Assembly (NCBI GenBank): GCA_963753345.1 | Contig: CAVWBU010000027.1 | Coordinates: forward strand, 160,001 to 224,000 | DNA length: 64,000 nt | Reading direction: 5' to 3' | From: an uncultured Fibrobacterota bacterium | Lineage (GTDB): Bacteria; Fibrobacterota; Chitinivibrionia; Chitinivibrionales; FEN-1185 | Shown here: positions 6,258 through 34,327 of the stretch, in pieces | How positions within the stretch are numbered: the stretch's first letter is position 1 | Layout of the letters: each line of letters starts with the position of its first letter | Notes under the pieces: model-generated | Database searches by the model: none | Told to the model about the DNA's origin: nothing | Seen by the model: only the letters and a program-made list of their open reading frames with translations | Position numbers and translations under genes: made by a program

Positions 6258-6414
6258 GCTCAGTCGTCCTGCGTGTCTTCCGCCTTCCCCTCATCTCTGC
6301 ACGGTATCACGAGTTCTGCTGCGACATTTCCCATAAACAGGGATGTATTTTAAGCTCTTGTAATGGCATGAGTGTTTGAAGCGTTGTAACACATGATATG
6401 CAGGAGTTCCGCGC

Positions 6415-8528: not shown

Positions 8529-11500
8529 TGATGCGAACGTTTCATGCGGTTGTTTTTGCGGCATGCGCGGCGACTTCGTCCTTGGCCGGACAGGCGCCCG
8601 TCAATTTTTTTGCAGATTCCATAGGCAGTATCGACGCGCTGCCGGCGGCGCTCCTGCGCGGCGCGCAGGAAGCTTACGACGTGAACATGAAGGGGCTCGA
8701 TGCGCTGGACAGGGGAGACCTCGACAGCGCGGCGGCGTTTTTTTCAAAGGCCATGTCGCTGGTTCCGAATTATTCCGACGCCCACAATAACATGGGCGTG
8801 GTGCATTTCCGCAAGGGGAACATCCGGGAAGCGCTTGCGATATGGGAGTCGGTCACCAAGAGCGACCCGGAGTACGCCACCGCATACTACAACATGGGCG
8901 TTGCCGATTATCACGACAAAAATTACCAGGCATGCGTGCCGCTTCTGAAAAAGGCGGTCGGACTCAACAGAAGATTCGTGGAGGCCCTTATCATGCTCGG
9001 CCGCGTCGACCTCGCGCTCGACAGAAAAAAGGACGCGGTGGCGAATTTCCGCGAAGCGGCGAAGGCCGGTCCTGACCGGCCTGACGCCTGGCAGTTTCTG
9101 GCCTACGGCCTTTTTCGTGACAACGACACGGCCGGCGCGGTTTCGGTCCTGTCGAAGCATCAGGACAATGCCCCGACGCTCAAAATGCTCGGCGAGATCG
9201 AATCGTTCCGCAAGAACTACAAGGCCGCATCGGCCTATTTCGCGGAGGCGGTTTCGCGGGGCGGAAACGCGGAGGAACTTGTCAACCTTGCGTCTGCACA
9301 GGTTGACGAACACAACTGCAAAGAGGCGATTGCCACACTCAAGCTGTATGCCTCGAAGGTCTCGGTGCAGTCTGCCGACGCATACCTGTATGGGGGAATT
9401 GCGTCAAAGGACTGCGGCGACATGACGGGCGCACGCGCATATTTTGAAAAGGGACTTGCAAAATATCCCGCAGACGCCATTCTCAGGTACAATCTGGGCC
9501 AGATTTACTTCCAGCTCAAGCTCTTCGATCAGGCGGAAGCAATGTGGAACACGGTGAGCGATTCCCTCAATGATCCGTCGCTGTATTACCTCCGCGCGCT
9601 CAACGCACGCCGAAAGGGGAACCTCGATCTCGCCGAAAATTATGTGAGAAGCGCACTGCGTCGTGATGAGCGGCCGGAATACCTCGACCTCCTCGGCGTG
9701 CTGCTTTACGCAAAAGGAAACAAGGAGGAGGCCACGGCCAGTTTCAAGAAAGCTCTCAGGCTCGATCCGGAACTCCGGTCCGCGCAGCTGAACCTTGCGC
9801 TTGTTTCGCAATCGAAGGACGAACTCGAAAAATCGGCCATCGATCTTGAAAAGGACCGCAGCGAATGCAGGAGCAAGTGTCAGGACATTGCGCTCCGGCT
9901 CTCAATTGTCTACTACAACATGGGACAGGCGGACAAAGCCGCGCGTCTCCTTGAAGCGCTTCCCGACGGGGAGAAGAATGAGCGGATATTCCGACACCTG
10001 GCGCTTTTTCACCGCGAGCTTCACGAATGGGACAAGGCCATCCGGACGCTCGAAAAGGCGAAAACGTTTTTTATTCTCGACCTGCAGACCGAATATGAGC
10101 TGGCCGAGGATTACCTCTTTTCGGGCGATAACCGCAAAGCAATTGACGCGCTCAACGACCTGCTGGGAAAATGGGACCAGAATCCATGGCGAATCTATTA
10201 CCAGCTCGGGTATGCGTACATGGAAATGAAGGAGTTTTCCAAAGCAAAAACAGCCCTTGCGCAAAGCCTTAAGAAGAAACCGGATAATCTTGCCGCCCAA
10301 GGGGTTATGGCATACATCCTTAACCAGGAAGGGGATGTTGTGCAAGCAAGGACAATCTGGGAAAAGACGCTCAAGGAAGATCCGTCGAATAGTGGATTGC
10401 TTATCAACATGGGACTCTCGCTTGAAAAGGACGGCAGGTACGAAGAGGCGCTTGGGTACTACGAAAAGGCTCAATTGCTCAATCGCGACGACAACGCGAT
10501 CCAGATCAACATCGGCAATGCTTACAGCGGAATGGAAAAGAACCGTGACGCCGCCAAGGCGTACACGGCGGCGCTTAATTCTCCAAAGCGCAACCTTGCG
10601 GCGTACGACCTTTTTCTCATTGCGCAGAAGACCACCGACGAAACGACTGCAGGCTCGATGCTTGCCATTCTCAAGTCCGAATTTCCGTCGTCGGCATACA
10701 CAGCGCGGGCACAGGCGGACATGAGCCTGTGGAAAAAGGACACGGCGGCCGCGCTTGCAAAACTGGAATCCCTCGGCGAAAAAGACCCGGGCGACTACGT
10801 TGCCCTCGCGCGGATTTATGCGAACAGGAAAATCTTCGACAAGGCGACCGCTTGCCTGACGAAGCTTCCTGCCGAACCGTACTGGGAAAAGGCCCGGACC
10901 GGCGTCATGGCGCAGATAGATTTCCTCTCGGGAAACTATGTCCGCGCTCTTGCCGAATTGAAAACCATCGGCGACACCGGCTTTGCGGCCATGTACAACA
11001 TGGCGGTCGCGGCCTTCAACGCGAAGGAGTACCCCGACGCCGTGGCCATCGGGGAAAAAATCGTTTCCAAGGCAAGGGGTGAAGACCGTGCGGATGTGTG
11101 CAGGCTGGCAGGCAACGCGGCCATGGGTGAGAAACAGTGGAAGAAGGCCCAAGAATGGTATCAGCAACTCGAAGACCTCAAGCGCAGCGACCCTCTCGTG
11201 CAGTACAACCTTGCCGTGATCTGCTACAACCTGGGCAGCATTGAGGAATCGTGGACATACTATCAGAAGGCGCGCGCGCTCGACTCGCGGCTTCAAAACC
11301 AGGACATCGAAAAACGGTACGCACTCCTTCATTCCGACAAAGGGGCGATTTTGCAGATCTTGGACTCGGTTGACTATTGGTACAATGCGGCGGTTTCGAT
11401 ACAGGACAGCGCGCACGACAGCGCCGCCGGGGCAAACGCCGAGGCGTACTATAAAAAGATCCTTGAGAAAAATCCGACCTACTACAGGGCGTGGAACAAC

Positions 11501-16119: not shown

Positions 16120-16659
16120 GTGAAAATGGGCTTTTTCTTTTCGGGAATTTTCTGGGGCGGCATTTTGATCCTTCTCGGCATTTCGGTTATCGTCCGGATC
16201 GTGTTCAACATCCACATTCCCTTGGTGCGCATTGCGTTTGCGCTTGTCCTCATTTACCTTGGCATACGGGTGCTGGTCGGAGATTCGTGGTGCCGATGGA
16301 GCGGTAGCGGCGGAACCGCCGTCTTCAGTGAAGTAAAGACCGAGATCTCGGGCGATTCCGGCGACCACACCATTATTTTCGGGAAAGGCGTCGTGAGCCT
16401 GACCGACATGTCGCTTGCGGAAAAGGGAAAAAGAGTCAGGATAAACACGATCTTCGGCGCAGGGGAAATTCACGTGAGCCCTTCCGTGCCGGCCATCATC
16501 AGGGTGACTGCGGCGTTCAGCGGTGCCCGGATGCCCGACGGAAACATCATTTCCTTTGGAGAGTATAGTTACAAGACAAAATCATATTCCGATCCTGCCA
16601 AGGCGATAAAAGTTGACGCAACGGTGGTGTTCGGGGGCCTGGAGATAATCGAGCAATAG
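16120..16659 (+). CDS. Membrane protein with LiaF-like C-terminal domain
   Basis: Two N-terminal TM helices ('FWGGILILLG', 'LIYLGI') and repeated 'xFG/FS' beta motifs ending 'VVFGGLEI'. SD AGGAGG. Confidence 0.65.
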   Translation: MKMGFFFSGIFWGGILILLGISVIVRIVFNIHIPLVRIAFALVLIYLGIRVLVGDSWCRWSGSGGTAVFSEVKTEISGDSGDHTIIFGKGVVSLTDMSLAEKGKRVRINTIFGAGEIHVSPSVPAIIRVTAAFSGARMPDGNIISFGEYSYKTKSYSDPAKAIKVDATVVFGGLEIIEQ

Positions 16660-16808
16660 GGGCCGCCGGTAGCAAACAGAAAGAAAAGAGGCTTTTGTGG
16701 GCACTGGCCATTACCAGAAAACGGCCCTCAAAGGCCATTTTTTTTGCTTGTGCGGCCTTGTATCATCCCTGATTTTAATGGGTTAGTCCCTGTTTTGGAG
16801 GCGGTCGC

Positions 16809-21800: not shown

Positions 21801-23954
21801 ATGAAGAACGAACCGCATGCCGGCGGAAAGATCGACCAGAAACACGCCCAAACGCTTGCGCGGCTTTTCAACATCGCCTATAATGGCGCGATACTCTACG
21901 GCGGCACCCACCAGACCACCGTCGACGCCGCCGTTCCCTTTCACAGCTTCCTCATGAGGATTGTTTCCGGTGAAACCATGGTTTCCGTTCTTGCGGAGCG
22001 GGAGTCGGTCTTCGTGGAGAATTTTTGCATCGACAAGATCATCAACGTGAGGCGGCTCGTGGTGCATTTCAGGAAGCTCGGCCTTCAGTCGATCACGTTT
22101 TCAAAGGAGGTTTCGGTTGACGGCATACGAGCGCTTCTCGTTGTCCTCAGCGACGCCGAAGCGTATCCCAACGCAACCGCGATGCAGAACCGCCTTGCGT
22201 TGCTCAATGTCAAGGGAATCCGGCTCAATTATGTCGTGTATCGCAAGATGACCACGGACGAAAAGGTGGTCGATAAGAACGCCATCCATACCCTCGCGAC
22301 GCAGCCGCTCGGGCCGACACCCATGGACACCACCATTGTGAAACAAGTGCTCGACGGGCTTTCGGAGGTTGTGTCGGCCCGGCGGATCGTTGACGGGTTG
22401 CCTGCGGTTTCTTCGGCACCGGAGGGCGCCCAAGCGGCCGACCTTTCCACGCTGCTCGAACAGATGCGCGCGATTAATTCGCGCATCAACGATCCTGCCG
22501 CCGCGTCCGGCGACGGGCTGTCCATACAGGAAATGATGGAGTCCATTGTCAAGCTCAGAAGGGACGTGAACGACAAACTCGGCCTGATCCGCAAAACCCA
22601 TGCGCTCAATGAAACGGAGAATTCGGTCGTCAGCGAACTTGACACAATGAGCCATGAGGTGATGCTGCGGCTGCTCTGCGAGGAATACAAGCGCGGCGGC
22701 ATCTCCACCAAGCGTCTCGCGCAGATCACGCGGCGCATGATGCCGGACATCAAGGAGCTCAAGCGCATGCTGCCGCGGCTCAAGGACGCGCTTTTGAAAG
22801 AGGGCATGCCCCAGGCGGACTATCTCCAGTACGTTACCGACATCCTCAAGGACATCGAATCGGACGGGCTGGCCGGCGTATTTGAGGCGGCTGTCAAGGA
22901 CATCGGCGTGTCCATGGAAGAGCTTGTCGAGTCCATCCGCGCCGACCCGGCCGACGCGGCACGGCTCATCGTGCTTGCCTCCGAGATCCGGAAATCCTCG
23001 CGCTCGGACGATTCTCAGCTCTCGTCGCTTCTTACCGACTACATTGAAAGGGCGAGCCAGTCTCTGTCGCTCGAATCAAAGGACGTCGCGACCAAGGAAG
23101 GAATACATCTTCTCAAGTCTGCCATCGGCAGGATTGAAACCGATCTTGTCGAGAAGCTCCGGGGCCAGGGCATTCCCGCGGACGTTCTCGACAAGGCGTC
23201 GGGTCTTCTGCAGACGCGCCTCGATGCAACGGTGAGCGGCGCGAAACAGGAATGGGCATCGCGGTTTGTCTCGTCGCTCAAGGAACTCGGCGAAAACGAG
23301 CTCCTTCAGGTTCTCCGCGAGCTCTTTTCGCAGGAAGGCGGCGCAGATCTGGTGCGCGAGCCGCTTCGGAAGCTTCTCGCGTCGAAAGGCTATTCCGAGG
23401 AGAGCATCGTCCGGCTCATGGAAAAAGCGGCGTCAAAATCCGCGGCCGCTTCCCAGGAGCTTCCGAAGGGAATCCTGAATGTCAATGCTACTCTTTACTT
23501 TCTGGAACGCGAGATAAAACGGCACCAGCGGTACAACACGCCGTTTACGTGTCTCATCCTGACGAACGTGCGGGTCAAATCCAACGGGAACCCTTCGCAT
23601 ATTCCGACTGAAGGGGAGACCAAAGCGATCATGCCGCAGGTGCTCTCGTTCCTGAGGCATGTTTTGCGCGACCTGGACATTGTGGGTTCGCTCGGGCTTG
23701 TTTCGGGAGACGTGCCTTTCGTGGTGCTGCCGCAGACCGGGGATGCAGGGGCCGAAAAGGTCATCGAACGCCTGCAGCGCGATCTGAGCGCCCGGGCATT
23801 CGAAGCGGACGGCGCGCAGGTCAAAGGGTCATTCGCGCTGTCGTATTCTTCTTTTGACAAGACAACGATGACGGGATACCGTTCTTTTCTCGAGTTTGCG
23901 CTGGGGCGTCACCGGAAGGTGGAAAGCGGTATTACCTCGGCGCAGTCTTCCTGA
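21801..23954 (+). CDS. Helical cytoplasmic protein with C-terminal degenerate GGDEF-like domain
   Basis: C-term 'GILN...LEREIKRHQRYNTPFT...LRDLDIVGSLG..FVVLPQT...A..VIERL' follows the GGDEF layout without the GGDEF motif. SD AAGGGAG. Confidence 0.65.
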   Translation: MKNEPHAGGKIDQKHAQTLARLFNIAYNGAILYGGTHQTTVDAAVPFHSFLMRIVSGETMVSVLAERESVFVENFCIDKIINVRRLVVHFRKLGLQSITFSKEVSVDGIRALLVVLSDAEAYPNATAMQNRLALLNVKGIRLNYVVYRKMTTDEKVVDKNAIHTLATQPLGPTPMDTTIVKQVLDGLSEVVSARRIVDGLPAVSSAPEGAQAADLSTLLEQMRAINSRINDPAAASGDGLSIQEMMESIVKLRRDVNDKLGLIRKTHALNETENSVVSELDTMSHEVMLRLLCEEYKRGGISTKRLAQITRRMMPDIKELKRMLPRLKDALLKEGMPQADYLQYVTDILKDIESDGLAGVFEAAVKDIGVSMEELVESIRADPADAARLIVLASEIRKSSRSDDSQLSSLLTDYIERASQSLSLESKDVATKEGIHLLKSAIGRIETDLVEKLRGQGIPADVLDKASGLLQTRLDATVSGAKQEWASRFVSSLKELGENELLQVLRELFSQEGGADLVREPLRKLLASKGYSEESIVRLMEKAASKSAAASQELPKGILNVNATLYFLEREIKRHQRYNTPFTCLILTNVRVKSNGNPSHIPTEGETKAIMPQVLSFLRHVLRDLDIVGSLGLVSGDVPFVVLPQTGDAGAEKVIERLQRDLSARAFEADGAQVKGSFALSYSSFDKTTMTGYRSFLEFALGRHRKVESGITSAQSS

Positions 23955-23985
23955 CAAGCATCTGTAATCTTGCAAAAAAAAAGAA

Positions 23986-24076
23986 CGGAGGGGAGAGGAT
24001 TTGAACCTCCGGTAGCGGTATTATCCACTACGACGGTTTAGCAAACCGTTGCCTTCAGCCACTCGGCCACCCCTCC
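23986..24076 (-). tRNA. tRNA-Ser (GCT), intact copy at the island boundary
   Basis: Reverse complement reads GGAGGGG...ACGGT-TTGCTAA-ACCGT...long variable arm...GGTTCAAATCC..CCCCTCC-G. CCA not encoded. Confidence 0.97.
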
Positions 24077-24078
24077 AA
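24038..24078 (+). repeat. att direct repeat, copy 1 (tRNA-Ser 5' half plus anticodon loop)
   Basis: TTAGCAAACCGTTGCCTTCAGCCACTCGGCCACCCCTCCAA, identical to 31643..31683. Confidence 0.95.
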
Positions 24079-24159
24079 CAATCTTATAACTTATTGGAGT
24101 TAATTAAGTTGCGAATTTTTCTTAAACTTACTTATTGGGCTTACTAAAATGCTTTTACT

Positions 24160-24193
24160 AAAAATATCGTCAGTAAATACTGACGATATTTTT
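24160..24193. repeat. Perfect 16-bp inverted repeat
   Basis: AAAAATATCGTCAGTA-AA-TACTGACGATATTTTT. Confidence 0.85.
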
Positions 24194-24524
24194 CATTCGT
24201 AAAAAATATATAAAAGGGGATGGCAATGGGAAGAAAAAGTGAGCCATCTTGTTTAGATTCTGCAAACGGCAATATTTTTTTTGCAATGACATGATGTTAG
24301 TGACCTCTGCACGTCAGTGAAAAATGGATAGCTTCGTCTTAAGTATTGAAAATAGACCGCTCAAGTAATAGAATATTACATATACCACCAGATTCTCTCC
24401 TGTTGAGTTCCACAACAGTGCGGTGCTTGCATAGCATTCCGATAAGGAAAAGTCACAGGACGTATGTTTGCACGGGCTGTGGCCTTCAAAGCAGCGGCAA
24501 AAAACAGGAAATGAATTAACAAAT

Positions 24525-26681
24525 ATGACTGATTTCCACGGCAAACAAAAACAAGAAAAACCTATAGTGAACAGCGTGAGAGACGGCCTGCAACGTCAAA
24601 TGTCTTTCCGGTGGACAACACACCCCGTTTTATTCGCAGTGCTTTTATTCCTTGCTGGCGGCAGCTTGAGCTTCTGGATTGCCGTTCTGCAGCGCAATGC
24701 TGATATCAACTATAAACGCGATCAGGTCACCCTGGAGATTGATCATATCCGTAATGACCTCAGCCGCGAACTCTATGCGACCATCAACCTGACGCAGGGA
24801 CTTGTCGCCCTGGTGCGCATGCAAGGTGGCATACGGCAGGACCAATTTGAAGCAATGGCGCGCGAACTTAAGGATCGTAGCACGCTTATACGGAATGTAG
24901 CTCTTGCACCGGGAAATGTAATTCGATTTATGTATCCTCTTGCGGGAAATGAAAAAGCCATAGGCCTGGATTATCTGAAGACGTCGGACCAGGCAGGTAC
25001 GGTCCTGCGGGCCATTGAAGAAAATCGCATAGTTGTTGCCGGGCCAGTACGCCTTATTCAAGGTGGGGTCGGTATCATAGGCCGTACGCCGATTTTCCTG
25101 AGGGACTCGATTAATAGCGGAAAGTCGCAGCGCTATTGGGGAATTGCGGCGACCGTCATTAGTTTCGATTCGCTTGTCCATATGGCTGGAATCGAGACGG
25201 CCAGCGCAAATCTGTATATCGCGCTTCGTGGAGCAGATGGTACCGGGGCCCGCGGCAATGTTTTCTGGGGCGACAGTGGTGTCTTTGCTTCCGGTCCCGT
25301 GTTGATGGAAATCGCTTTACCTTCGGGAAGTTGGCAACTGGCCGCGGTACCGCGCGGTGGATGGCCTGCATTCAAACCTCTCGCTTCGGCATCGTTTCTC
25401 GCGGGATTTCTTATATCATTATTTTTCTCGATGCTGCTCTTTGAAACATTGCGTATCAGTCAATTCCGCGCATTCGAGATTGCCGAGCGGAAAAAGATCG
25501 AAGAAACCCTGCGCGAGCGCGAACGGCAGATTTCCATGATCTACGATACGGTCGGGGACAGCATATTCAATCTCAAAATAGAAAAGGATGGGAGTTACTG
25601 TTTTTCATCTGTCAATCAGTGTTTCCTTTCGACCACCGGGCTGCAAGCCGTTCAAATAGTCGGAAAACGGGTGCAGGATATTATTCCCGAGCCATCGCTG
25701 TCGCTGGTGTTGGAAAAATATTCGGAGGCAATCCGGGAGAGGAAGATCGTGCGATGGGAGGAGGTCTCGCAATATCCCACGGGACGGTTGATCGGGGAAG
25801 TGAGTATCGCCCCGATATTTGACGGGTCCAATACCTGCGTCGGCCTGGTTGGATCGGTTCACGATATCACAAAGCGAAAAAACGATGAAGACGAAATTCG
25901 AAAACTTAATTCCGAGCTTGAACAGCGCGTAGCCGAACGCACCGCAGAGCTGGTTGTGGCCAGGGACCGCGCAGAATCGGCCGACCGTGTGAAGTCCGCT
26001 TTTTTGGCCACCATGTCCCACGAACTGCGTACGCCGCTCAACTCCATCATCGGCTTTACCGGTCTCATCCTGCAAGGCCTGGCCGGGCCCTTGAACGCGG
26101 AACAAACCAAACAGCTCTTGATGGTGCAGAACAGCGGACAACACTTGCTTTCCCTCATTAATGATGTGCTGGACATTTCCAAGATCGAAGCAAGCCGAAT
26201 AGATATCGCCGACAAACCGTTTGATCTGTCCGGCTCCATCCAAAAAGTCATCAAAACCGTGAAACCCCTGGCCGACAAGAAAAACTTGCCTCTGGCAGCG
26301 CAGGTGGCGGTTGACGTAGGCGAAATTTCCGGCGATTGCAGGCGGGTTGAGCAAATCCTGTTGAATCTACTGAGCAATGCCATCAAATTCACCGAGAAAG
26401 GTGAAGTGCGTGTAGAGTGTTCTCTGGACAGGGGATTTGCTAAGATCCGTGTTGCCGACACCGGTCCCGGCATTAGGCCTGAGGATCTTGATAAATTGTT
26501 TCAACCTTTCCGCCAGCTTGACACCGGCCTGATGCGTCAGCACGAGGGAACAGGGCTGGGCTTGGCCATCTGCAAGCGGCTGGTCGAGCTGATGGGCGGC
26601 GCAATTACTGTTGAGAGCGAGTGGGGCAAAGGAAGCGCGTTCGAATTCACGCTACCCGTTCATCAGGAAAAGGGATCATGA
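24525..26681 (+). CDS. CHASE-PAS sensor histidine kinase
   Basis: TM-CHASE ('YPLAGNEKAIGLD', 'AGPVRLIQGG')-TM-PAS-HisKA 'MSHELRTPL'-HATPase 'NLLSNAIKF, DTGPG, GTGLGL'. Start uncertain (24525, 24567 or 24600). Confidence 0.9.
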   Translation: MTDFHGKQKQEKPIVNSVRDGLQRQMSFRWTTHPVLFAVLLFLAGGSLSFWIAVLQRNADINYKRDQVTLEIDHIRNDLSRELYATINLTQGLVALVRMQGGIRQDQFEAMARELKDRSTLIRNVALAPGNVIRFMYPLAGNEKAIGLDYLKTSDQAGTVLRAIEENRIVVAGPVRLIQGGVGIIGRTPIFLRDSINSGKSQRYWGIAATVISFDSLVHMAGIETASANLYIALRGADGTGARGNVFWGDSGVFASGPVLMEIALPSGSWQLAAVPRGGWPAFKPLASASFLAGFLISLFFSMLLFETLRISQFRAFEIAERKKIEETLRERERQISMIYDTVGDSIFNLKIEKDGSYCFSSVNQCFLSTTGLQAVQIVGKRVQDIIPEPSLSLVLEKYSEAIRERKIVRWEEVSQYPTGRLIGEVSIAPIFDGSNTCVGLVGSVHDITKRKNDEDEIRKLNSELEQRVAERTAELVVARDRAESADRVKSAFLATMSHELRTPLNSIIGFTGLILQGLAGPLNAEQTKQLLMVQNSGQHLLSLINDVLDISKIEASRIDIADKPFDLSGSIQKVIKTVKPLADKKNLPLAAQVAVDVGEISGDCRRVEQILLNLLSNAIKFTEKGEVRVECSLDRGFAKIRVADTGPGIRPEDLDKLFQPFRQLDTGLMRQHEGTGLGLAICKRLVELMGGAITVESEWGKGSAFEFTLPVHQEKGS

Positions 26682-27064
26682 AAAACAACATTCTTGTCAT
26701 CGAAGACAACGAGCAAAACCTCTACCTCGTGACATTTCTGTTGGAACAAAGTGGCATTAAGATTTTCGCGGCCCGAAGCGGACCCGAAGGAATCATACTG
26801 GCAGGCCGGATTCAGCCCGATTTAATTCTTCTCGATATCCAATTGCCATTGATGGACGGCTATGCGGTGGCGCGGGAATTGAGGCGCAATTCGGCCCTGC
26901 GGGACGTGCCTATCATAGCGGTGACTTCCTACGCGATGGTGGGCGATCGGGAGCGCGCTTTGGAAGCAGGGTGTGTGGGCTATATCGAAAAGCCGATTAA
27001 TCCGGCAACATTCTTGTCTGAAATTGAGCGCTATCTGCCTGCGCCTGGGAAAATGAACGGCTGA
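26678..27064 (+). CDS. Single-domain response regulator (DivK-like)
   Basis: Motifs 'VIEDN', 'LLDIQLP', 'AVTSYAM', 'EKP'. ATGA overlap with the kinase stop. Confidence 0.92.
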   Translation: MKNNILVIEDNEQNLYLVTFLLEQSGIKIFAARSGPEGIILAGRIQPDLILLDIQLPLMDGYAVARELRRNSALRDVPIIAVTSYAMVGDRERALEAGCVGYIEKPINPATFLSEIERYLPAPGKMNG

Positions 27065-27074
27065 TGGGAGGCCC

Positions 27075-30000
27075 ATGAAAAAACTTCTCATTGTTGACGA
27101 CAATGAACAAAACCTGTACATGCTGCAGGTGCTTTTGTCGGCAAAGGTTTTCAAGTGGTACAAGCATCGAACGGCGCCGAAGCTCTGGATAAGGCGCGGT
27201 TGGCGCCCGAACTGATTATCTCAGACTGTTGATGCGGTGATGGACGGTTACGCTTCTGCACTATTGGAAGAACGACGAGCTCTCAGAAATACTTTTGTAG
27301 TGTACACGCCACTATACGGACGCGAAAGATGAGCACTTGCTCGGAGTTTGGGAGAGGAAGATTTATTTAAAAGGAATTGAAGCATTATGGTGCATAAAAA
27401 TGTGCTGGTGAAAGCGAAGCAAGGCAAACTGTCCCCGGTGCGTGAGCCGCGAGCGATAAAAAGGCATTGATGAATGAATACAGTGAAGTCCTGATCCGTA
27501 AATTGGAGGAAAAAGCTCTGCAGCTGCAACAAGCCAACGCACGCTTGAGAAGGACATCGCAGAGCGTAAAAAAACGGAGATTGCCTTGCGCCTCGATGGC
27601 GAGATAATGGCCAATATGGCCGAAGGCGTCCAGTTGACGAGAGAAAATGATGCGGTAATAGTTTATGTAAATACACAGTTTGAAAAGATGTTTGGTTACA
27701 GCCCGGGGGAATTGCTCGGGAAGCGTGTCTCTGTGCTTAATGCGTCTTCCGAAAAATCTTCCAGAGGCACGGCGGATGATATTATCCGAACTCTTGAGAA
27801 CAAGGGTACGTGGGATGGAGAAATCTTTAACGTAAGGAAAAACGGCGCGACATTCTGGTGTCATGCGAGCATTTCCACATTCGTCCATCCGGATCATGGG
27901 AAGGTTTGGATTTCGGTTCAGCAGGACATAACCGAGCGCAAACGGGCGGAGGAAGCGTTGCGCGAGAGCGAGGAGAAATACCGGAGCCTTGTGGACGGCG
28001 CCAGCGAAGCAATTCTTGTAGTGCAGGACGGTATGCTCAAATTCGTCAACCGCAGTGCCGTGGAGCTTGCGGGGTATACGGAACAGGACCTTATTGGGAA
28101 ATCTTTTACGGAATTATTTACCCGGATGATCGAAAGATGGTGGCGGATAGTTATGTGAAACGGATGAAAGGCGATTCTGCAACGTCGAGATATGAATTCA
28201 GGCTGTTTGCTGACGACATAAAATGGGTGGAAATAAACGCGGTCATCATAAATTGGAAAGGCAAGACTGCCACGTTGAATTTTCTCACCGACATCACCGA
28301 GCGCAAGCAGGCCGAAGATGTCCAACGCCGGAATTCGCATGATATGGAGTTCCTTTCACGCTCGGCAATGACGCTTGTTGAGTTGACGTTTGAAAAAGAC
28401 GTTTATCAGTATATAGGAGAACTGCTCAAGGAAATACTTCCGGAAAATACGGTGGCGGCCGTGAGTGAATTTGACGAATCCACGCGTGCATTTCACGGGA
28501 GGAACATCATTGGAATTGACAAGACGATTGGAGTGATAAGAAAAATCCTCGGCAAGGACCCCATGGAGCTTTCCGGCGACTTCGGGCCTACGGCGAAAAA
28601 AGCCTTGTTGAGCGGAAAACTGCAGAAGATAGACATGGGCTTGCAAGACTTTGCACAGATCATCCCTGATAGCATCGCTCGCGCCATAGAGAAGCTTCTC
28701 GGTATAAAGGCGTTCTTTGTTATCGGTTTTGTCAAGGAGGGTAAAGTGTTGGGCGGCCTCTCCATTTTCCTTCGCAAGGAGAGCGTGCTTGCCAATCCCG
28801 GCGCTATAGAGGCCTTTGCGGCACAGGCCGCAATAGCGATTGCGAAAAGGAAAGCCGAACAGTCGCTGCGCGAGAGCGAGGAGCGGTACCACACGTTGTT
28901 CGATGACGCCAAGGACGGGATCGCGCTAGCCGATGCCGAAACCGGAAGGATTGTCGAGTGCAACCAGGCGTTGTGCAGAATGGTCGGGATGGACAAAGAG
29001 GAACTTGTCGGGCAGATGCAGTCGTTCATTCATCCTCCGCAGACTCTGGTCAATGGAGAATCGGCGGGCTATATGAAGTATAAGAGAGGCGATCCGGAGA
29101 TGATCCTTGAAGAACAGCTTATATCGAAAAGCGGCGAATTGACACCGGTGGAAATCAAGGCCGCCCGTGTCCAGATGAACGGCCAAGACTACATGCTGGG
29201 GATCTTCCGCGACATCTCGGAGCGTAAACAACATGAAAAGGAAAAGGAACACCTCCAGGCCCAGCTTCTCCAGGCCCAGAAAATGGAGGCCGTAGGCACA
29301 TTGGCCGGCGGCGTGGCCCACGACTTCAACAATCTCCTCACCGCCATTTCGGGCTTCACGACGCTGGCCATGGGGAAAATAGACGAATCCGATCCCAGTG
29401 CAAAGGGACCTGAAACAGGTGAGCATCGCGGCGACAAAGGCCGCCGGTCGTCACACGCCAGCTCCTTCTTTTCAGCAGGAAACAGCACATGGAGCCTATG
29501 CCGATGGACCTCAATGCCACAATCAGCCGCCTGCTTAAAATGCTCGACAGGCTTATCGGGGAAGACATTGTCGATTGAGACAGACCTGGAAAAGGGCATG
29601 TGGAGCATTCTGGGCGACGAGGGAAATATCGAGCAGGTGCTCATGAACCTTGTCGGTAAATGCAAGGGACGCCATGCCCGAAGGCGGAAAATTATTCATC
29701 AAGACCGAGAATGTGACCATCGATGATGAATATTGTCGTCACGTACAAGACGGCCCGCCCCGGACGCTTTGTCTGCCTGTCGGTATCGGACACCGGCACA
29801 GGCATGGACGAACTGACGCTGGAGCACATTTTTGAACCGTTTTTCACCACAAAGCCGCAAGGCAAGGGAACAGGGCTCGGTTTGTCCGTGGTGTTCGGCA
29901 TCGTCGAGCAGCACAAGGGCTGGATAAATGTTTATAGCGAACTCGGACATGGCACTACGTTTAAGGTTTATTTCCCGTCTTCATCCGCCAGGTCCCGAAC

Positions 30001-30423
30001 AAAAAAGCAAAGAAGATGGTCCCCGCTTGCTTCCTTGGAGGGAAAAGGCGAGCGCATCATGATCGTTGAGGACCAGGCCGAGGTGCGTGCGACTCGCGAA
30101 GGAAATGCTTGCAACAAACGGATATTCGGTGTTCACGGTTTCAACCGCAAAAGAGGCGATGGAACTGTTTGAAAAGGAAAACGGCAGAATTCGACCTGGT
30201 ATTCAGCGATGTCGTTCTCCCAGATAGGTCCGGGATCCTGCTGGTGCAGGAGTTGCTGAAACGCTGGAAATTCGAGGTTATCATCACGAGCGGCTATACG
30301 GACGAAAAAGCTCATTGGGACTTTATAAAGGAGCACAACTATCGCTTTTTACACAAGCCATATGCCGTGCGCGATCTTTTGCAGGCGGTAAGGGAAGTGC
30401 TGGACGAAAAACGAGAAAGTTGA
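27075..30423 (+). pseudogene. Frameshifted REC-PAS-PAS-(GAF-like)-PAS-HisKA-HATPase-REC hybrid kinase (true pseudogene or assembly indels)
   Basis: Starts 'MKKLLIVDDNEQN'. Fragments in several frames carry PAS ('QDITERK', 'TDITERK', 'RDISERK'), 'AHDFNNLL', 'DTGTG..FFTTK..GTGLGL' and a terminal REC 'SDVVLP..TSGY..HKP'. Confidence 0.85.
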
Positions 30424-30436
30424 CAGGTGAATAACT

Positions 30437-31399
30437 ATGGAAAGATTAAAAGTCCTTATCGCCGATGACGACGGATCAATCAGGACCCTGGTAAAAGAGT
30501 ATCTGGAACAGAAAGGTTTCAGGGTCATTGTTGCGGTAAACGGAAATGAAGCCGTGATCCTGGAAGAAAGGTTACGGCCCGACCTGGTAATTCTGGACGT
30601 GGAAATGCCGGTGATGAGCGGGCTTGAAGCATGCAAAGCCATTCGGGCAAAACGGAGCGGTATTCATTACGTGCCGATTATTTTCCTAAGCGGCATTCTG
30701 GTGGAAGGCGCGGTTATCATGGGCCTGCAAATAGGCGCGGATGACTACGTACGGAAACCGTTTGAGGCCCTCGAACTTGTGAGCCGCATCAACAACCTCA
30801 TCAAAATGAAGAAATTCATTGAGCAGGTGGAATCAATCGAAAACGTGATTTTCTCCCTTGTCAAATCCATCGAAGCGCGGGATTCCTACACCGCCGGACA
30901 TTGCAGGCGCGTGGCCGAAATTTCGTCGAAGCTTGGCAAAGAGCTGGGGCTGTCCGGCGAGGAAATAAAAATCATCCATAAGAGTTCCATGCTGCACGAC
31001 GTCGGGAAAATCGGGGTGCCGGACCAGATACTCAATAAACAGGGCAAACTGCTTGATGAGGAGTTCACCCGAATCAAGGAGCATCCCGCGAGCGGCGGGG
31101 AAATCTGCGGGTGTCTGCGGCTCGCCGAACAATCTCTTGACATCATACGGCACCACCACGAAAAACTTGACGGAAGCGGATACCCTGACGGGTTGAAAGC
31201 GGAACAGATCAGCAGGTATGTGAGGATCGTCACCGTGGCGGACATCTACGACGCTCTGACGACCGACAGGCCCTACCGTGTGTCAAAAAGTGTTCCCGAT
31301 GCGATTGGCACATTGAAAAAAGAGGCTTCCGAAGGAAAACTGGACACGGGCATCGTGAACTGCATGGAGAAAATTTCCTACGGACAACAGGCCGCATGA
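30437..31399 (+). CDS. REC-HD-GYP cyclic di-GMP phosphodiesterase (RpfG-like)
   Basis: REC 'LDVEMP'. HD-GYP motifs 'YTAGH', 'LHDVGK', 'HHEKLDGSGYP', 'DIYDALTTDRPY'. Confidence 0.93.
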   Translation: MERLKVLIADDDGSIRTLVKEYLEQKGFRVIVAVNGNEAVILEERLRPDLVILDVEMPVMSGLEACKAIRAKRSGIHYVPIIFLSGILVEGAVIMGLQIGADDYVRKPFEALELVSRINNLIKMKKFIEQVESIENVIFSLVKSIEARDSYTAGHCRRVAEISSKLGKELGLSGEEIKIIHKSSMLHDVGKIGVPDQILNKQGKLLDEEFTRIKEHPASGGEICGCLRLAEQSLDIIRHHHEKLDGSGYPDGLKAEQISRYVRIVTVADIYDALTTDRPYRVSKSVPDAIGTLKKEASEGKLDTGIVNCMEKISYGQQAA

Positions 31400-31572
31400 C
31401 CACAGGCCATGTTCTGCCCAGAAGCCGCCGACTCCTGTCGCAGAGCAATATTGTATTTTAAATAAGTACGTGAGGAAGGGGAGGGCTGAGGTCTATTTTG
31501 ATTGGGTTGAAGAATAGCTTCTTTGTTGTCAATAACTCACCATAAATTCGCAGCCGACACCGAAGAGATGAT

Positions 31573-31594
31573 TTTTGTCTTTATTTTGTCTTTA
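31573..31594 (+). repeat. Tandem 11-bp direct repeat near the right att (candidate arm-type site)
   Basis: TTTTGTCTTTA TTTTGTCTTTA, 48 bp inside the right repeat. Confidence 0.55.
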
Positions 31595-31642
31595 TCGGCT
31601 AAGAAGTGCCGAATTTCGCAGGAAAAACGCGAACCAGAGGAC

Positions 31643-31683
31643 TTAGCAAACCGTTGCCTTCAGCCACTCGGCCACCCCTCCAA
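31643..31683 (+). repeat. att direct repeat, copy 2 = displaced 5'-half fragment of tRNA-Ser (minus strand)
   Basis: Identical to 24038..24078. Identity stops exactly at the 3' edge of the anticodon loop. Confidence 0.95.
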
Positions 31684-31723
31684 ACGAGGATTGTCAAGCG
31701 CGGAATCAAAAAAATGATGTCTA

Positions 31724-31752
31724 AATATACTACGTAAGGATTTGCATTACAA
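31724..31752 (-). promoter_or_regulatory. Probable native tRNA-Ser promoter TTGTAA-N17-TATATT, now upstream of the tRNA fragment
   Basis: Minus strand reads ttgtaa tgcaaatccttacgtag tatatt tagac, about 42 nt before the fragment 5' G (31681). Resembles the tRNA-Pro promoter. Confidence 0.6.
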
Positions 31753-31849
31753 GCCCGGCATCACGGCTTGAGGAAATCGAGTCCCAGCGCCGAATCGCCC
31801 GTGCGCTTCAAGAACGGAACCCCGTCCCGACGGCCTGGAAATATTGCAC

Positions 31850-31878
31850 TTGCATTGGCTTCCCCTTTGCAGTAGAAT
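31850..31878 (+). promoter_or_regulatory. Promoter TTGCAT-N17-TAGAAT for the phosphorylase-like gene
   Basis: Hexamers and spacing as stated, 37 nt before ATG 31916. Confidence 0.45.
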
Positions 31879-31915
31879 TAGTTTATACTGTGCAATGTTA
31901 ACATGTTAGGGTGAC

Positions 31916-34327
31916 ATGGATTCCATTAAACGCTCCTATCATAGATACCTTAGGTATTTCCTTTCCAAGGACGATGCCACTGCCACGCCCTACGATAAAT
32001 ATATGGCGCTTGCGTACGCGGTTCGCAGCGAGATGGTCGACCGCTGGATAGAAACGCAGAGCGGATACCATCGGAGCAATGCGCGGCGGGTGTATTTTTT
32101 GTCAATGGAGTATATTTTCGGCAGGAGTTTGCAACAGAACATTTTGAGTCTTGACATTGAGGAAAGCGTCGCTGCGCTCGCCGCCGAACTCGGGTTCGAC
32201 ATCGAGGGAATTTACGCCCAGGAGAACTCCTTCGATCTCGGAAACGGCGGCAAGGCCCGCCTTGCCGCATGTTTGCAGGATGCCATGGCGACGATGGGAC
32301 TTCCCGCAATGGCCTACGGCCTCAGGTACGATTACGGTCAGTTTCATCAGGACATCGAAAACGGGGTGCAGGTGGAGCGGCCCTACGACTGGCTGCACAA
32401 AGGCCACCCCTGGGAAATCATTCGCCCGGAATACACCTGCGAAGTCAACTTCTACGGCACGGCCGCGCCAGCGACCAACGCCCGCGACCCGCTCGAAGGC
32501 GTCTGGAAAGACCCCGAGCGCGTGGTCGCGGTCCCGTATGATTTTCCCGTCGCCGGATTTCGAAACCGCACGGTCAACACGCTGCGTCTATGGGTGGCAC
32601 GCGGGTCCGAAGAATTCTTGCCCGATTACACCAACCACGGCGACTATTTGCGCGCGTGCGAAGACAAGTCACGGTCGGGCACCGTCACAAAAATCCTGTT
32701 TCCTGAGGAGGACGTTCTGCGCGCGACGGAACTGCGGCTCAAGCAGCAGTTTTTTCTCGTCAGCGCCTCGCTGCAGGATATCCTGAGGCGGTACAAGACC
32801 AGGAACAGCGACCTTGCGGACCTTCCCGAGCATGTGATTATCCAGTTGAGCGGCAGCAATTGCGGACTCGCCGTGCCCGAGCTGCTTCGGCTGCTGGTGG
32901 ATGTTGAACACATTCCGTGGAAGAAGGCGTGGGACGTGACCTCGGGCATTTTTGCGTATACAAGCAACGCCGTGTGCCGCGAGCACCTGGAGGCCTGGCC
33001 GGTGTATCTTATGTCCCAGATTTTTCCACGGCACCTGCAGATCATTTACGAAATCAACCAGATGCACCTTGACAGCGTGCGCAGTGCGCACGCCGCCGAC
33101 AACGACCTGATTCGTGACCTTTCACTGATCGCCGAAGGCGAGGTGCGGCGCGTGAAGCTCGGGCATCTTGCCATGCTCGGTTCCCGCACCGTCAATGGAG
33201 TTTCGGCGTCGCAGTCCGAAACGCTCAAGAAATCAGTTTTTCCGGAATTCATGGTCGTGTCGCCGGATAAGTTCCAATCCAAGACCAACGGCGTTTCGCA
33301 TCGGCGATGGCTCCTGTGCGCCAACCGGCCTCTGGGAAGCCTGATTGCTTCGGTCATCGGTGAAGAATGGGCGAGGAAGCCCCAGGAACTGTCCCGGCTC
33401 GAGCCGTTCGCCGCCGACGAGGCGTTCCTCGCAAAGATGGGAAATGTCCGCAGCGCCGCGAAACGCTCCCTTGCCGCGTATGTCAAGATGGCGGTCGGCG
33501 TCACCGTGGACCCAGACGCAATGTTCGACGTCCAGTGCAAAAAGATACACCAATACAAGCGCCAGGTGCTTCACGTGCTGCATGTGCTGGCGCGTTACCT
33601 CCGCATCAAACGCGGCGAAGGTCTTCCGTCGGTCAGCCGCGTGCATATTTTTTCCGGCAAGGCGGCGCCGTCCGATCAGCTTGCAAAACAGATAATACGG
33701 CTTATCAATGTCGTCGGCGAAATAGTCAATAACGACCCGCAGGTGAGGGACCTGATCAAAGTCGTCTTCCTGCCTGATTACGGGGTCACGCTGGCCGAAA
33801 AGATAGTGCCTGCTGCCGACCTGTCGGAACAGATTTCGACTCCGGGCCAGGAGGCGAGCGGCACCGGAAACTCGAAATTCGCCATCAACGGCGGCCTGCT
33901 CATGGCCAGCAAGAGCGGGTCGAACATAGAGATCATCGAGCATGTCGGCGCCGAAAACATGTTCGTATTCGGAAGATCCGCGGGCGAGTTGCCCGCTGTT
34001 AACAGCTATCAGGCGTACGACGTCCTTTCTGCCAATCCGATGCTTTCCGCGGTTTTCAAGTTCCTCCAGGAATGTCTTGACCGTCCCGGCTCCAATGCAG
34101 TCTCCATCCGGCCGCTTCTGTCAACACTCATGGATTCGGACCGCTATTTCGTCCTGCTCGACTTCGACGACTACGTGCGCAAACAGGACGAAGCCGACGC
34201 CCTTTTCCGGAATTCCAGGGAATGGGCGAAAAGAAGTCTTGTGAATATCGCGCGCTCCGGCTATTTTTCTATCGACAGGACTGTCGGCCAGTATGCGGCC
34301 GAAATCTGGAACGTAACCCCGCAGTAA
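31916..34327 (+). CDS. glgP: Glycogen/alpha-glucan phosphorylase homologue (GT35) with degenerate active-site motifs
   Basis: Full length, 803 aa. YFLSME, LGNGG, ELRLKQ, KTNG..RRWL, YKRQ, GKAAP and EASGTGNSK (PLP Lys) are present, but several conserved motifs are altered (see findings). Confidence 0.85.
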   Translation: MDSIKRSYHRYLRYFLSKDDATATPYDKYMALAYAVRSEMVDRWIETQSGYHRSNARRVYFLSMEYIFGRSLQQNILSLDIEESVAALAAELGFDIEGIYAQENSFDLGNGGKARLAACLQDAMATMGLPAMAYGLRYDYGQFHQDIENGVQVERPYDWLHKGHPWEIIRPEYTCEVNFYGTAAPATNARDPLEGVWKDPERVVAVPYDFPVAGFRNRTVNTLRLWVARGSEEFLPDYTNHGDYLRACEDKSRSGTVTKILFPEEDVLRATELRLKQQFFLVSASLQDILRRYKTRNSDLADLPEHVIIQLSGSNCGLAVPELLRLLVDVEHIPWKKAWDVTSGIFAYTSNAVCREHLEAWPVYLMSQIFPRHLQIIYEINQMHLDSVRSAHAADNDLIRDLSLIAEGEVRRVKLGHLAMLGSRTVNGVSASQSETLKKSVFPEFMVVSPDKFQSKTNGVSHRRWLLCANRPLGSLIASVIGEEWARKPQELSRLEPFAADEAFLAKMGNVRSAAKRSLAAYVKMAVGVTVDPDAMFDVQCKKIHQYKRQVLHVLHVLARYLRIKRGEGLPSVSRVHIFSGKAAPSDQLAKQIIRLINVVGEIVNNDPQVRDLIKVVFLPDYGVTLAEKIVPAADLSEQISTPGQEASGTGNSKFAINGGLLMASKSGSNIEIIEHVGAENMFVFGRSAGELPAVNSYQAYDVLSANPMLSAVFKFLQECLDRPGSNAVSIRPLLSTLMDSDRYFVLLDFDDYVRKQDEADALFRNSREWAKRSLVNIARSGYFSIDRTVGQYAAEIWNVTPQ

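Follow-up and report, generated by a model that had tools for sequence, protein, structure and literature searches.

A 7.6-kb island on the 5' side of tRNA-Ser(GCT) in an uncultured Chitinivibrionales bacterium, and its possible mobilisation in trans

The tRNA-Ser(GCT) gene of an uncultured Chitinivibrionales bacterium of peat (G000, the source genome, a 4.5-Mb metagenome bin with 4.8% contamination) has upstream of it a genomic island of 7.6 kb bounded by two identical copies of the 5' half of the tRNA gene, whose common end falls exactly at the last base of the anticodon loop. Islands at the same gene in other assemblies have this breakpoint and the adjoining arms in common and carry different cargo, several relatives keep the site empty, and none of the islands that were completely searched contains a recombinase gene. 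Taking these observations together, we favour, with moderate confidence, the interpretation that the island belongs, as a cargo-only member, to a family of elements which replace the 5' part of a tRNA gene at the anticodon loop, and that it was moved by a recombinase encoded elsewhere. The cargo itself is ordinary, a two-component signalling set with a c-di-GMP-type regulator, and the value of the locus lies in the pattern found around it. In what follows, the window is the whole stretch of 64,000 nt that was analysed, coordinates without a prefix or a named contig refer to it, and the island locus corresponds to G000:C27 184079-191642.

The duplication was pointed out in an earlier examination of the letters alone (hereafter, the sequence-only reading), and a repeat finder reproduces it: two copies of 41 nt, with 100% identity and 7605 bp from start to start, which form the sole long perfect repeat within 23000-33000, the next longest family being of 48 nt and 71%. 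The left copy belongs to an intact tRNA gene, called by ARAGORN at 23985-24077 on the minus strand with anticodon GCT, whose 91-nt RNA folds into a cloverleaf with a long variable arm, and which is present only once among the 53 tRNA genes of G000. With positions numbered from the 5' end of the Rfam match, the repeat starts two bases upstream of the gene and ends at position 39 (window 24038), the last base of the 7-nt anticodon loop, exactly the span that the sequence-only reading had given it. It has to be noted that the outer of the two upstream bases matches by coincidence; the other fragments and the empty sites keep only the first one, so that the meaningful identity is of 39-40 nt. Neither ARAGORN nor Rfam calls a tRNA at the second copy, which is therefore a 5' fragment. 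This fragment has the same orientation as the gene and, being at higher coordinates, lies upstream of the minus-strand tRNA, in non-coding DNA between the gene of an HD-GYP-type regulator and glgP, so that the earlier placing of the island upstream of the intact gene, with the 5' half duplicated, is upheld.

The two chromosomal flanks give the order that preceded the island. On the left, the gene for a conserved 717-aa protein is syntenic with the tRNA in G001, G002, G004, G005, L031, L036 and L046, at 67-91% DNA identity. On the right, a 12.5-kb query spanning the island region was compared with 31 genomes, and the empty sites that the sequence-only reading had thought of looking for in relatives do exist: a tRNA match lies 0.2-0.8 kb from the glgP match, in the same strand arrangement, in G003, which belongs to the same genus, and, outside it, in no fewer than ten genomes from other genera (G007, G014, G029, G018, G024, G008, G016, G009, G028 and G027), while the tRNA adjoins glgP in inverted orientation in G017, G023 and G013. 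L040, in which 273 bp separate the tRNA from glgP, and L046 are empty too. Moreover, the sequence upstream of the tRNA in G003 and L046 aligns, at 79-81%, to 31684-31754, i.e., to the DNA beside the fragment. The ancestral order is therefore 717-aa gene, tRNA, glgP, and the 7,564 bp between 24079 and 31642 are an insertion in G000. The GC content is ~0.39-0.56 within the insert against 0.58-0.61 in both flanks, and the stranded fragment has, 42 nt upstream, a promoter-like site contained in a block that is conserved among empty sites (it aligns with G003 and L046). The closest relative, G001, has flanks which are 91-93% identical and different DNA beside the tRNA, and no copy of the island above 85% identity was found in this 73%-complete bin.

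As a separate observation on G001 (L019:1623-2099, L002:1-288), its tRNA has a native-type upstream region, and the space up to glgP is filled by the gene of a secreted repeat protein, with a signal-peptide-like start and an end that by eye resembles a sorting domain; no tRNA fragment is present there.

The same tRNA-Ser(GCT) site is occupied in other assemblies. In G005, and in the near-identical L033, the intact tRNA is followed by a 1.45-kb unit with one secreted-protein gene, then by a fragment with 1 mismatch, and then by a unit of ~13 kb with glycoside-hydrolase and other genes, the whole constituting a tandem array. G004 contains 12.2 kb (SRAP, GH30, PKD/propeller, PEGA, Fib_succ_major and Kelch) ahead of a fragment with 3 mismatches in 39 positions. 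In a 51-kb metagenome contig (L030 plus L043), the intact gene is at a distance of 7,662 bp from a perfect fragment, and genes for an ABC ATPase and ArsR/ArsC-like proteins are found at the ends of the island, the middle 4.2 kb being outside the sequence examined. In G002, 16.4 kb are found at the site, and the island of L031 starts with sigma-54-type regulator genes. The four displaced fragments of tRNA-Ser(GCT) (G000, G005/L033, G004 and L043) all end at the same last anticodon-loop base, and the sequence beyond it differs, which is the signature of a site-specific recombination with the loop as overlap. As the same architecture is seen in G005/L033, G004 and L030/L043, the possibility, contemplated in the sequence-only reading, that the repeat was a misassembly is very improbable. 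The locus serves as a hot spot: no fewer than five distinct cargo sets lie behind one and the same type of arms, and every one of them came in from the 5' side.

The repeat itself was also used as a query. Allowing up to 3 mismatches, the 41-mer matches in 18 of 81 genomes of the order, and two copies are present only in G000 and G005. The exact 39-mer of the tRNA 5' half had no match in viral contigs; in species genomes it identified 71 loci, all 71 being intact tRNAs of many phyla and none a fragment, and in metagenome contigs 26 loci, of which one (L043) is a fragment. The fragments of G000 and L043 are undecayed, with 39 of 39 positions conserved vs ~62-80% identity in the neighbouring non-coding DNA.

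Beyond the regenerated 5' half, an arm of ~165 bp, designated type A, is found in G000, G002, G004, L030, L031 and L039, and in G005 it comes after the fragment. Its identity to the G000 arm is of 144/165 in G005, 132/166 in L031 and 125/168 in G002, and of 57-65% in G004, L030 and L039. G005 has the most similar arm and yet, of all the carriers, its core genes are the most distant (67% and 72%); therefore, arm similarity does not follow descent. The type A arm of G000 includes a perfect palindrome with two inverted copies of the 9-mer TGACGATAT, of which the genome has no other cluster (32 single matches vs 23 expected), and in the L030 copy of the palindrome the symmetry has been kept through changes on both arms. 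The arm also contains a promoter-like site facing the tRNA and, since this is the sole tRNA-Ser(GCT) gene, it presumably has to drive its transcription.

The right arm of G000 has two direct copies of a related motif, TGTCTTTAT, located at -67/-56 from the crossover, the only such pair in the genome. Direct pairs of TGACGATAT, 11 bp apart, are found at -68/-57 in G005 (also in L033) and at -66/-55 in L043, and G006:C392 has a TGACGATAT pair at -67/-56, with one mismatch in the second copy. Phased 9-mer pairs between -55 and -68 are thus present in four of the five right arms examined (G000, G005, L043 and G006), G004 having none. A phased TGACGATAT pair, with up to one mismatch in each copy, was found nowhere else in the 4.5-Mb genome, nor further in the fetched loci, 1.16 Mb in all, if those viral ones that this very pattern had brought in are set aside. 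The last 42 nt of the right arm are identical at ~26 of 42 positions between G000 and L043. Because direct repeats cannot form a hairpin, the phased 9-mers would most simply be protein-binding sites, and the arm-type sites of an integrase are their natural, although provisional, reading.

Recombinase genes were searched for in six frames with PF00589 (tyrosine recombinases) and PF00239 (serine recombinases). The former gave 40 matches in 5 genomes, none of them within the island, and the latter had no match anywhere in G000. Using the eight G000 integrases as tblastn queries, no remnant was detected in the island (best E 0.043), nor was anything found in all the fetched loci, a search of low sensitivity, given that the known integrase of L056 was missed too. 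Seven 5' islands were fully covered by the six-frame searches (G000-Ser, G002-Ser, G004-Ser, two in G005, G000-Lys and G002-Lys), and 0 of 7 had a match to either family. The sequence-only reading had stated that no intact integrase remains in the island, and had left two options, a relic or an element mobilised in trans; the statement agrees with all these searches and, neither integrase nor remnant having appeared, the pair of options is the right one. A parent element, i.e., one with the same arms plus an integrase, was not found among 81 genomes of the order searched for a duplicated 5' half or 8 genomes of the family searched for the phased 9-mer pair, nor in the 26 metagenome loci, the 71 species-genome loci or the viral contigs.

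Based on these data, a course of events can be proposed. In its circular form, the element would comprise the right arm with the two phased 9-mers, the 7-nt anticodon-loop overlap, tRNA positions 1-32 and its own upstream arm of ~165 bp. A site-specific recombinase encoded outside the element, most likely a tyrosine integrase, would carry out the strand exchange in the anticodon loop of tRNA-Ser(GCT) on the chromosome. As a result, the 5' half and the upstream arm brought by the element would be fused to the native 3' part, keeping the only tRNA-Ser(GCT) working, and the native 5' half, together with its promoter, would be stranded 7.6 kb away beside glgP. Such a replacement of the promoter of an essential single-copy tRNA would leave its expression under the control of the element. 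The family would be made of conserved arms with variable cargo (signalling, glycoside hydrolases, arsenic resistance, defence), repeatedly inserted from the 5' side at tRNA-Ser(GCT), tRNA-Ser(TGA) and, probably, tRNA-Lys(CTT) in this Chitinivibrionales family, with the recombinase provided in trans, and some of its members may be mobile today. The sequence-only reading attributed the island to an atypical integrase: the 5'-replacing recombination at the anticodon loop stands, and "atypical" has to be taken as relative, the class having already been catalogued.

Two further tRNA genes show this arm design as well. In G006:C392 (L129 ~3140-3252), from another genus of the same family, the right arm with the phased 9-mer pair adjoins a tRNA-Ser(TGA) 5' fragment ending at the anticodon loop. 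The intact tRNA-Ser(TGA), whose upstream region is closely similar, lies on a different contig of the bin (G006:C282, L132:1520-1604), and the two contigs may be two alleles binned together. The anticodon stems of tRNA-Ser(TGA) and tRNA-Ser(GCT) are identical. An open reading frame beside the G006 arm, P0003, was considered as a candidate recombinase and rejected, for it belongs to no Pfam family and resembles AbiEi antitoxin clusters of a protein atlas (scores 0.94-0.95), being thus cargo.

The second case comes from a scan for partial copies that covered all 53 tRNA genes of G000. Upstream of tRNA-Lys(CTT) (G000:C40) there are two 5' fragments, one of 40 nt at L047:6445-6484, 5.5 kb from the gene, and another of 21 nt at 6337-6357, 108 bp further up. 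The 5.5-kb island so delimited contains genes for an AEP-TOTE primase-helicase and AbiEi/AbiEii and an unknown 181-aa gene, and no integrase. The Lys and Ser islands of G000 have in common an exact 13-nt match that contains the variant 9-mer (TGTCTTTAT) at equal distance from the crossover, a score reached in 0 of 300 shuffles, as well as, in the arm lying upstream of the regenerated tRNA, a promoter-like block (5 of 300 shuffles). The tRNA-Lys fragments end 2 and 5 nt beyond the anticodon loop. In G002, tRNA-Lys has a 17-kb 5' island with restriction-modification, PIN-like and IS21 genes, and a separate 3' island, with an integrase, at the same gene. 3' fragments are also found in G000, at tRNA-Thr, Arg, Phe and Lys, and integrase genes adjoin tRNA-Phe and tRNA-Arg.

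Two additional observations concern partial tRNA copies in G000. At G000:C21:46205-46226, ~150 bp upstream of tRNA-Ser(CGA) and in the same orientation, there is a copy of its 5' end, 22 nt long, which resembles the 21-nt tRNA-Lys fragment. L048 (G000:C32:180000-199900) is a mosaic of 3'-type island ends, with tRNA-Phe next to a gene for a 392-aa integrase and 3' fragments of tRNA-Arg(ACG) (~9987-10036) and tRNA-Lys(CTT) (~16640-16687), the full genes of which are on other contigs.

Sequencing runs were also inspected. Eight runs from two studies (peat, freshwater sediment and soil metagenomes) each contain 10-40% of the sampled words, and four of them (X1-X4) were aligned to the window, the material being assembled contigs, not reads. 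Island DNA is present in four runs of the two studies, and the stretches of the island that no contig covers in them carry no weight, contigs being the only material. In X3, a contig of 824 nt joins 23461-24037 to 31643-31889 with 0 mismatches, which is the empty junction (24037|31643) that the sequence-only reading had predicted, whereas in X1, X2 and X4 the contigs of the flanks stop inside the repeat. The prediction is thus matched exactly, by one contig of one run, and this match has to be qualified, since an assembly path through the repeat could have generated it: the assembler word for these contigs, which we take to be k=31, is shorter than the 41-bp repeat, so the joint is possibly an artefact.

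Several explanations compete for these data. The island could be a decayed relic, that is, an integrase-bearing element that was inserted in the 5'-replacing way, lost its mobility genes afterwards and became fixed, its arms being shared by descent and by exchange of the locus through the conserved flanks. We consider this possible, if somewhat unlikely. It accounts for the lack of an integrase or its remnant in the island, for a cargo gene that is read in four frames and for the 83% identical kinase segment common to the G000 and G002 islands, and decay does occur at the site, as the 3 mismatches of the G004 fragment and the loss of that of G002 indicate; furthermore, decay that keeps both att sites is the documented origin of the cis-mobilizable elements, CIMEs (PMC5704250). 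However, integrase loss would be needed separately in all seven islands, the fragments of G000 and L043 are intact next to non-coding DNA that has diverged, the G005 arm is far more similar than its core genes, and both the tandem units and the variety of cargo that accompanies these arms indicate that such events have recurred. It is because the fragments are undecayed, arm and core similarity are decoupled, units are stacked and integrases are uniformly absent that mobilisation in trans is favoured over a relic. Homologous or illegitimate recombination at a variable hot spot, with the boundary in the loop as a mere coincidence, would dispense with any recombinase, none having been found, and would fit a locus whose content differs in every genome, including G001 (a secreted-protein gene and no fragment). 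This is nonetheless improbable, considering that four independent fragments end at the same base of the anticodon loop, that the arrangement is repeated at tRNA-Lys(CTT) and, in a different genus, at tRNA-Ser(TGA), and that phased repeats are placed at a fixed distance from the breakpoint. Lastly, contigs of different strains could have been joined via the tRNA-derived repeat in a bin with contamination, and among the run contigs listed there are stops inside the repeat and neither island junction is confirmed; such an artefact is scarcely credible when the architecture is the same in independent assemblies (G005 and L033; G004; L030 with L043 on one contig), the arms are homologous across them and island DNA appears in runs of both studies. 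Two other mechanisms were discarded: an integron-type crossover, because there is no constant G-TT, the base that precedes the repeat being variable (T, C, T, C, T), and the target duplication of a transposon, for which 41 bp is too long.

The interpretation of a cargo-only element moved in trans has itself to face a number of unfavourable points. None of the genomes and contigs examined has yielded a recombinase that can be tied to these elements, and every genome is a metagenome bin, where active elements with an integrase may simply have escaped assembly. G002 has the left arm and no detectable right fragment. The empty junction of X3 could be a graph path through the repeat, without such DNA existing, and X3 also holds contigs of the island, differing from the window by up to ~3%. 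No circular junction appears among the contigs listed, which could hardly show one. In the right arm of G000, TGTCTTTAT differs from the 9-mer of the left arm at 3 of 9 positions, and neither 9-mer clusters beside any of the eight G000 integrase genes; close to the C31 integrase there are two isolated copies of TGTCTTTAT (8886 and 10277), no more than chance would give. The 9-mer repeats could instead be replication iterons, an alternative that arises because a viral contig has an array of TGACGATAT upstream of a Prim-Pol gene. The phased 9-mer pair was found in five loci of viral contigs (four of them distinct) with no tRNA nearby, and arrays of TGACGATAT with 11-bp spacing are located at L055:4505-4545 and L054:9013-9043, the one of L055 being upstream of a Prim-Pol/DUF3987 gene and having the look of origin iterons, which is to be taken as a lead and not as evidence of kinship.

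With regard to known systems, the 5' polarity itself is known and uncommon, and the island is a further case of a known kind. Of the 3919 islands in the Islander catalogue, the fragment is a 3' one in 3760 and a 5' one in 159 (Hudson, Lau and Williams 2015, PMC4383910, Table 1), figures that bear out the rarity assigned to 5'-replacing sites in the sequence-only reading, and 5'-distal recombination is likewise described as considerably less frequent (cited in PMC6563490). Islander establishes that a 5' fragment must lie upstream of the tDNA, and rejects candidates without an integrase gene (PMC4383910). As in Islander islands, an intact tDNA and its cognate end fragment are here in direct orientation on the same replicon, the 5' fragment is upstream of the gene and non-coding, the crossover is in the anticodon loop and the 7.6 kb fall within 2-200 kb; unlike them, the G000 island has no integrase gene and would be filtered out. 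Units of this type are therefore invisible to Islander, the main catalogue of islands in tRNA genes.

CIMEs keep attL and attR and have lost the genes for integration and transfer (PMC5704250). The streptococcal ones resemble the G000 island and its relatives in having both att sites and none of those genes, in forming tandem units at the same target and in the route that is proposed for them, by way of the recombinase of another element. In contrast, they are described in the same source as decay products of integrative elements (ICEs/IMEs) at the 3' ends of genes in Firmicutes, whereas the polarity here is 5', the arms are common to many cargo-only units across species and no parent element turned up in the searches described above. 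Similarities are also found with the islands of Prochlorococcus seeded by tycheposons, where elements are stacked and partial tRNAs are present (preprint, bioRxiv 10.1101/2020.12.28.424599): they lie beside tRNA genes, they result from successive integrations, with partial tRNAs marking the older events, and cargo-carrying units coexist in them with degenerate remnants. Tycheposons, unlike the G000 island, encode integrases of their own. No publication about this locus of Chitinivibrionales came up, in literature searches that had other aims.

If the elements are moved in trans, they would represent an uncounted route of gene exchange in uncultured Fibrobacterota of peat and sediment. A bolder proposal, which we regard as unlikely, is that integrase-less cassettes made of a tRNA 5' half, its own tRNA promoter and conserved arms are a self-standing class of mobile units, and not debris, which would be captured and released at the anticodon loop by a recombinase located elsewhere in the host or on a helper element. 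In that case, they would be the tRNA-based equivalent of integron cassettes, or of elements making use of a host recombinase, active across peat Chitinivibrionales species, and the class may be far more widespread than databases of islands which require an integrase can show.

The features of the locus are collected in the table. All the genes of the island are on the plus strand, and Rfam detects nothing in it besides the tRNA. The HATPase and receiver domains of the hybrid kinase are interrupted where the frames change, as deduced from open reading frames and Pfam, and 1-nt indels at 28115, 30015, 30028 and 30093 are seen in this region in contigs of other runs, so that the gene may either be broken, by strain-specific mutations, or reflect consensus errors of the bin. 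A homologue of this kinase, 83% identical, is in the G002 island at the same site. The small open reading frames of the arms (24314-24544, minus strand; L043:1799-2197) have no family match.

Table. Coordinates of the features of the island, its flanks and the second 5'-fragment island (window positions unless a locus is given)
Feature	Position	Strand	Basis or remarks
717-aa conserved gene, left chromosomal flank just past the tRNA 3' end	21801..23954	+	Open reading frame; no Pfam family
tRNA-Ser(GCT), intact (regenerated): native 3' part and putatively element-borne 5' half	23986..24076	-	Rfam RF00005, 57.7 bits, full model
Left repeat copy (attL core)	24038..24078		tRNA positions -2 to 39
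Left type A arm, new tRNA upstream region	24079..24242		Homologous arms in relatives
Perfect 16+16-bp palindrome	24160..24193		Two inverted TGACGATAT copies (24164-24172, 24181-24189)
Promoter-like site facing the tRNA in the type A arm	24205..24232	-	TTCCCA, 16 nt, TATATT; consensus match only
CHASE-PAS-HisKA-HATPase sensor kinase	24468..26681	+	Pfam
Single-domain response regulator	26621..27064	+	Pfam; longest open reading frame, true start probably further in
Multi-PAS hybrid kinase	27586..30423	+	Four overlapping frames (27586-28158, 27858-29726, 29723-30172, 30109-30423)
Response regulator fused to HD-GYP-type domain	30437..31399	+	Pfam (Response_reg + HD_5)
Right arm	31400..31642		Two direct TGTCTTTAT 9-mers at 31576-31584 and 31587-31595
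Right repeat copy (attR core), displaced native tRNA 5' half	31643..31683		
Original promoter-like site of the tRNA, at present upstream of the stranded fragment	31724..31752	-	Consensus match
glgP (carbohydrate phosphorylase), right chromosomal flank	31916..34327	+	Pfam PF00343, E 1.5e-255
tRNA-Lys(CTT) of G000	L047:11975-12050		Second 5'-fragment island, L047:6337-12050

Among the recombinases of G000 there is, at L049:2735-4030 (G000:C18), one of the tyrosine type with 431 aa, in which two Phage_int_SAM_4 stretches precede the catalytic domain. Counterparts of similar length and score are found in G003 and G005, and two in G004; three of these lie no more than 4 kb from the start of a contig.

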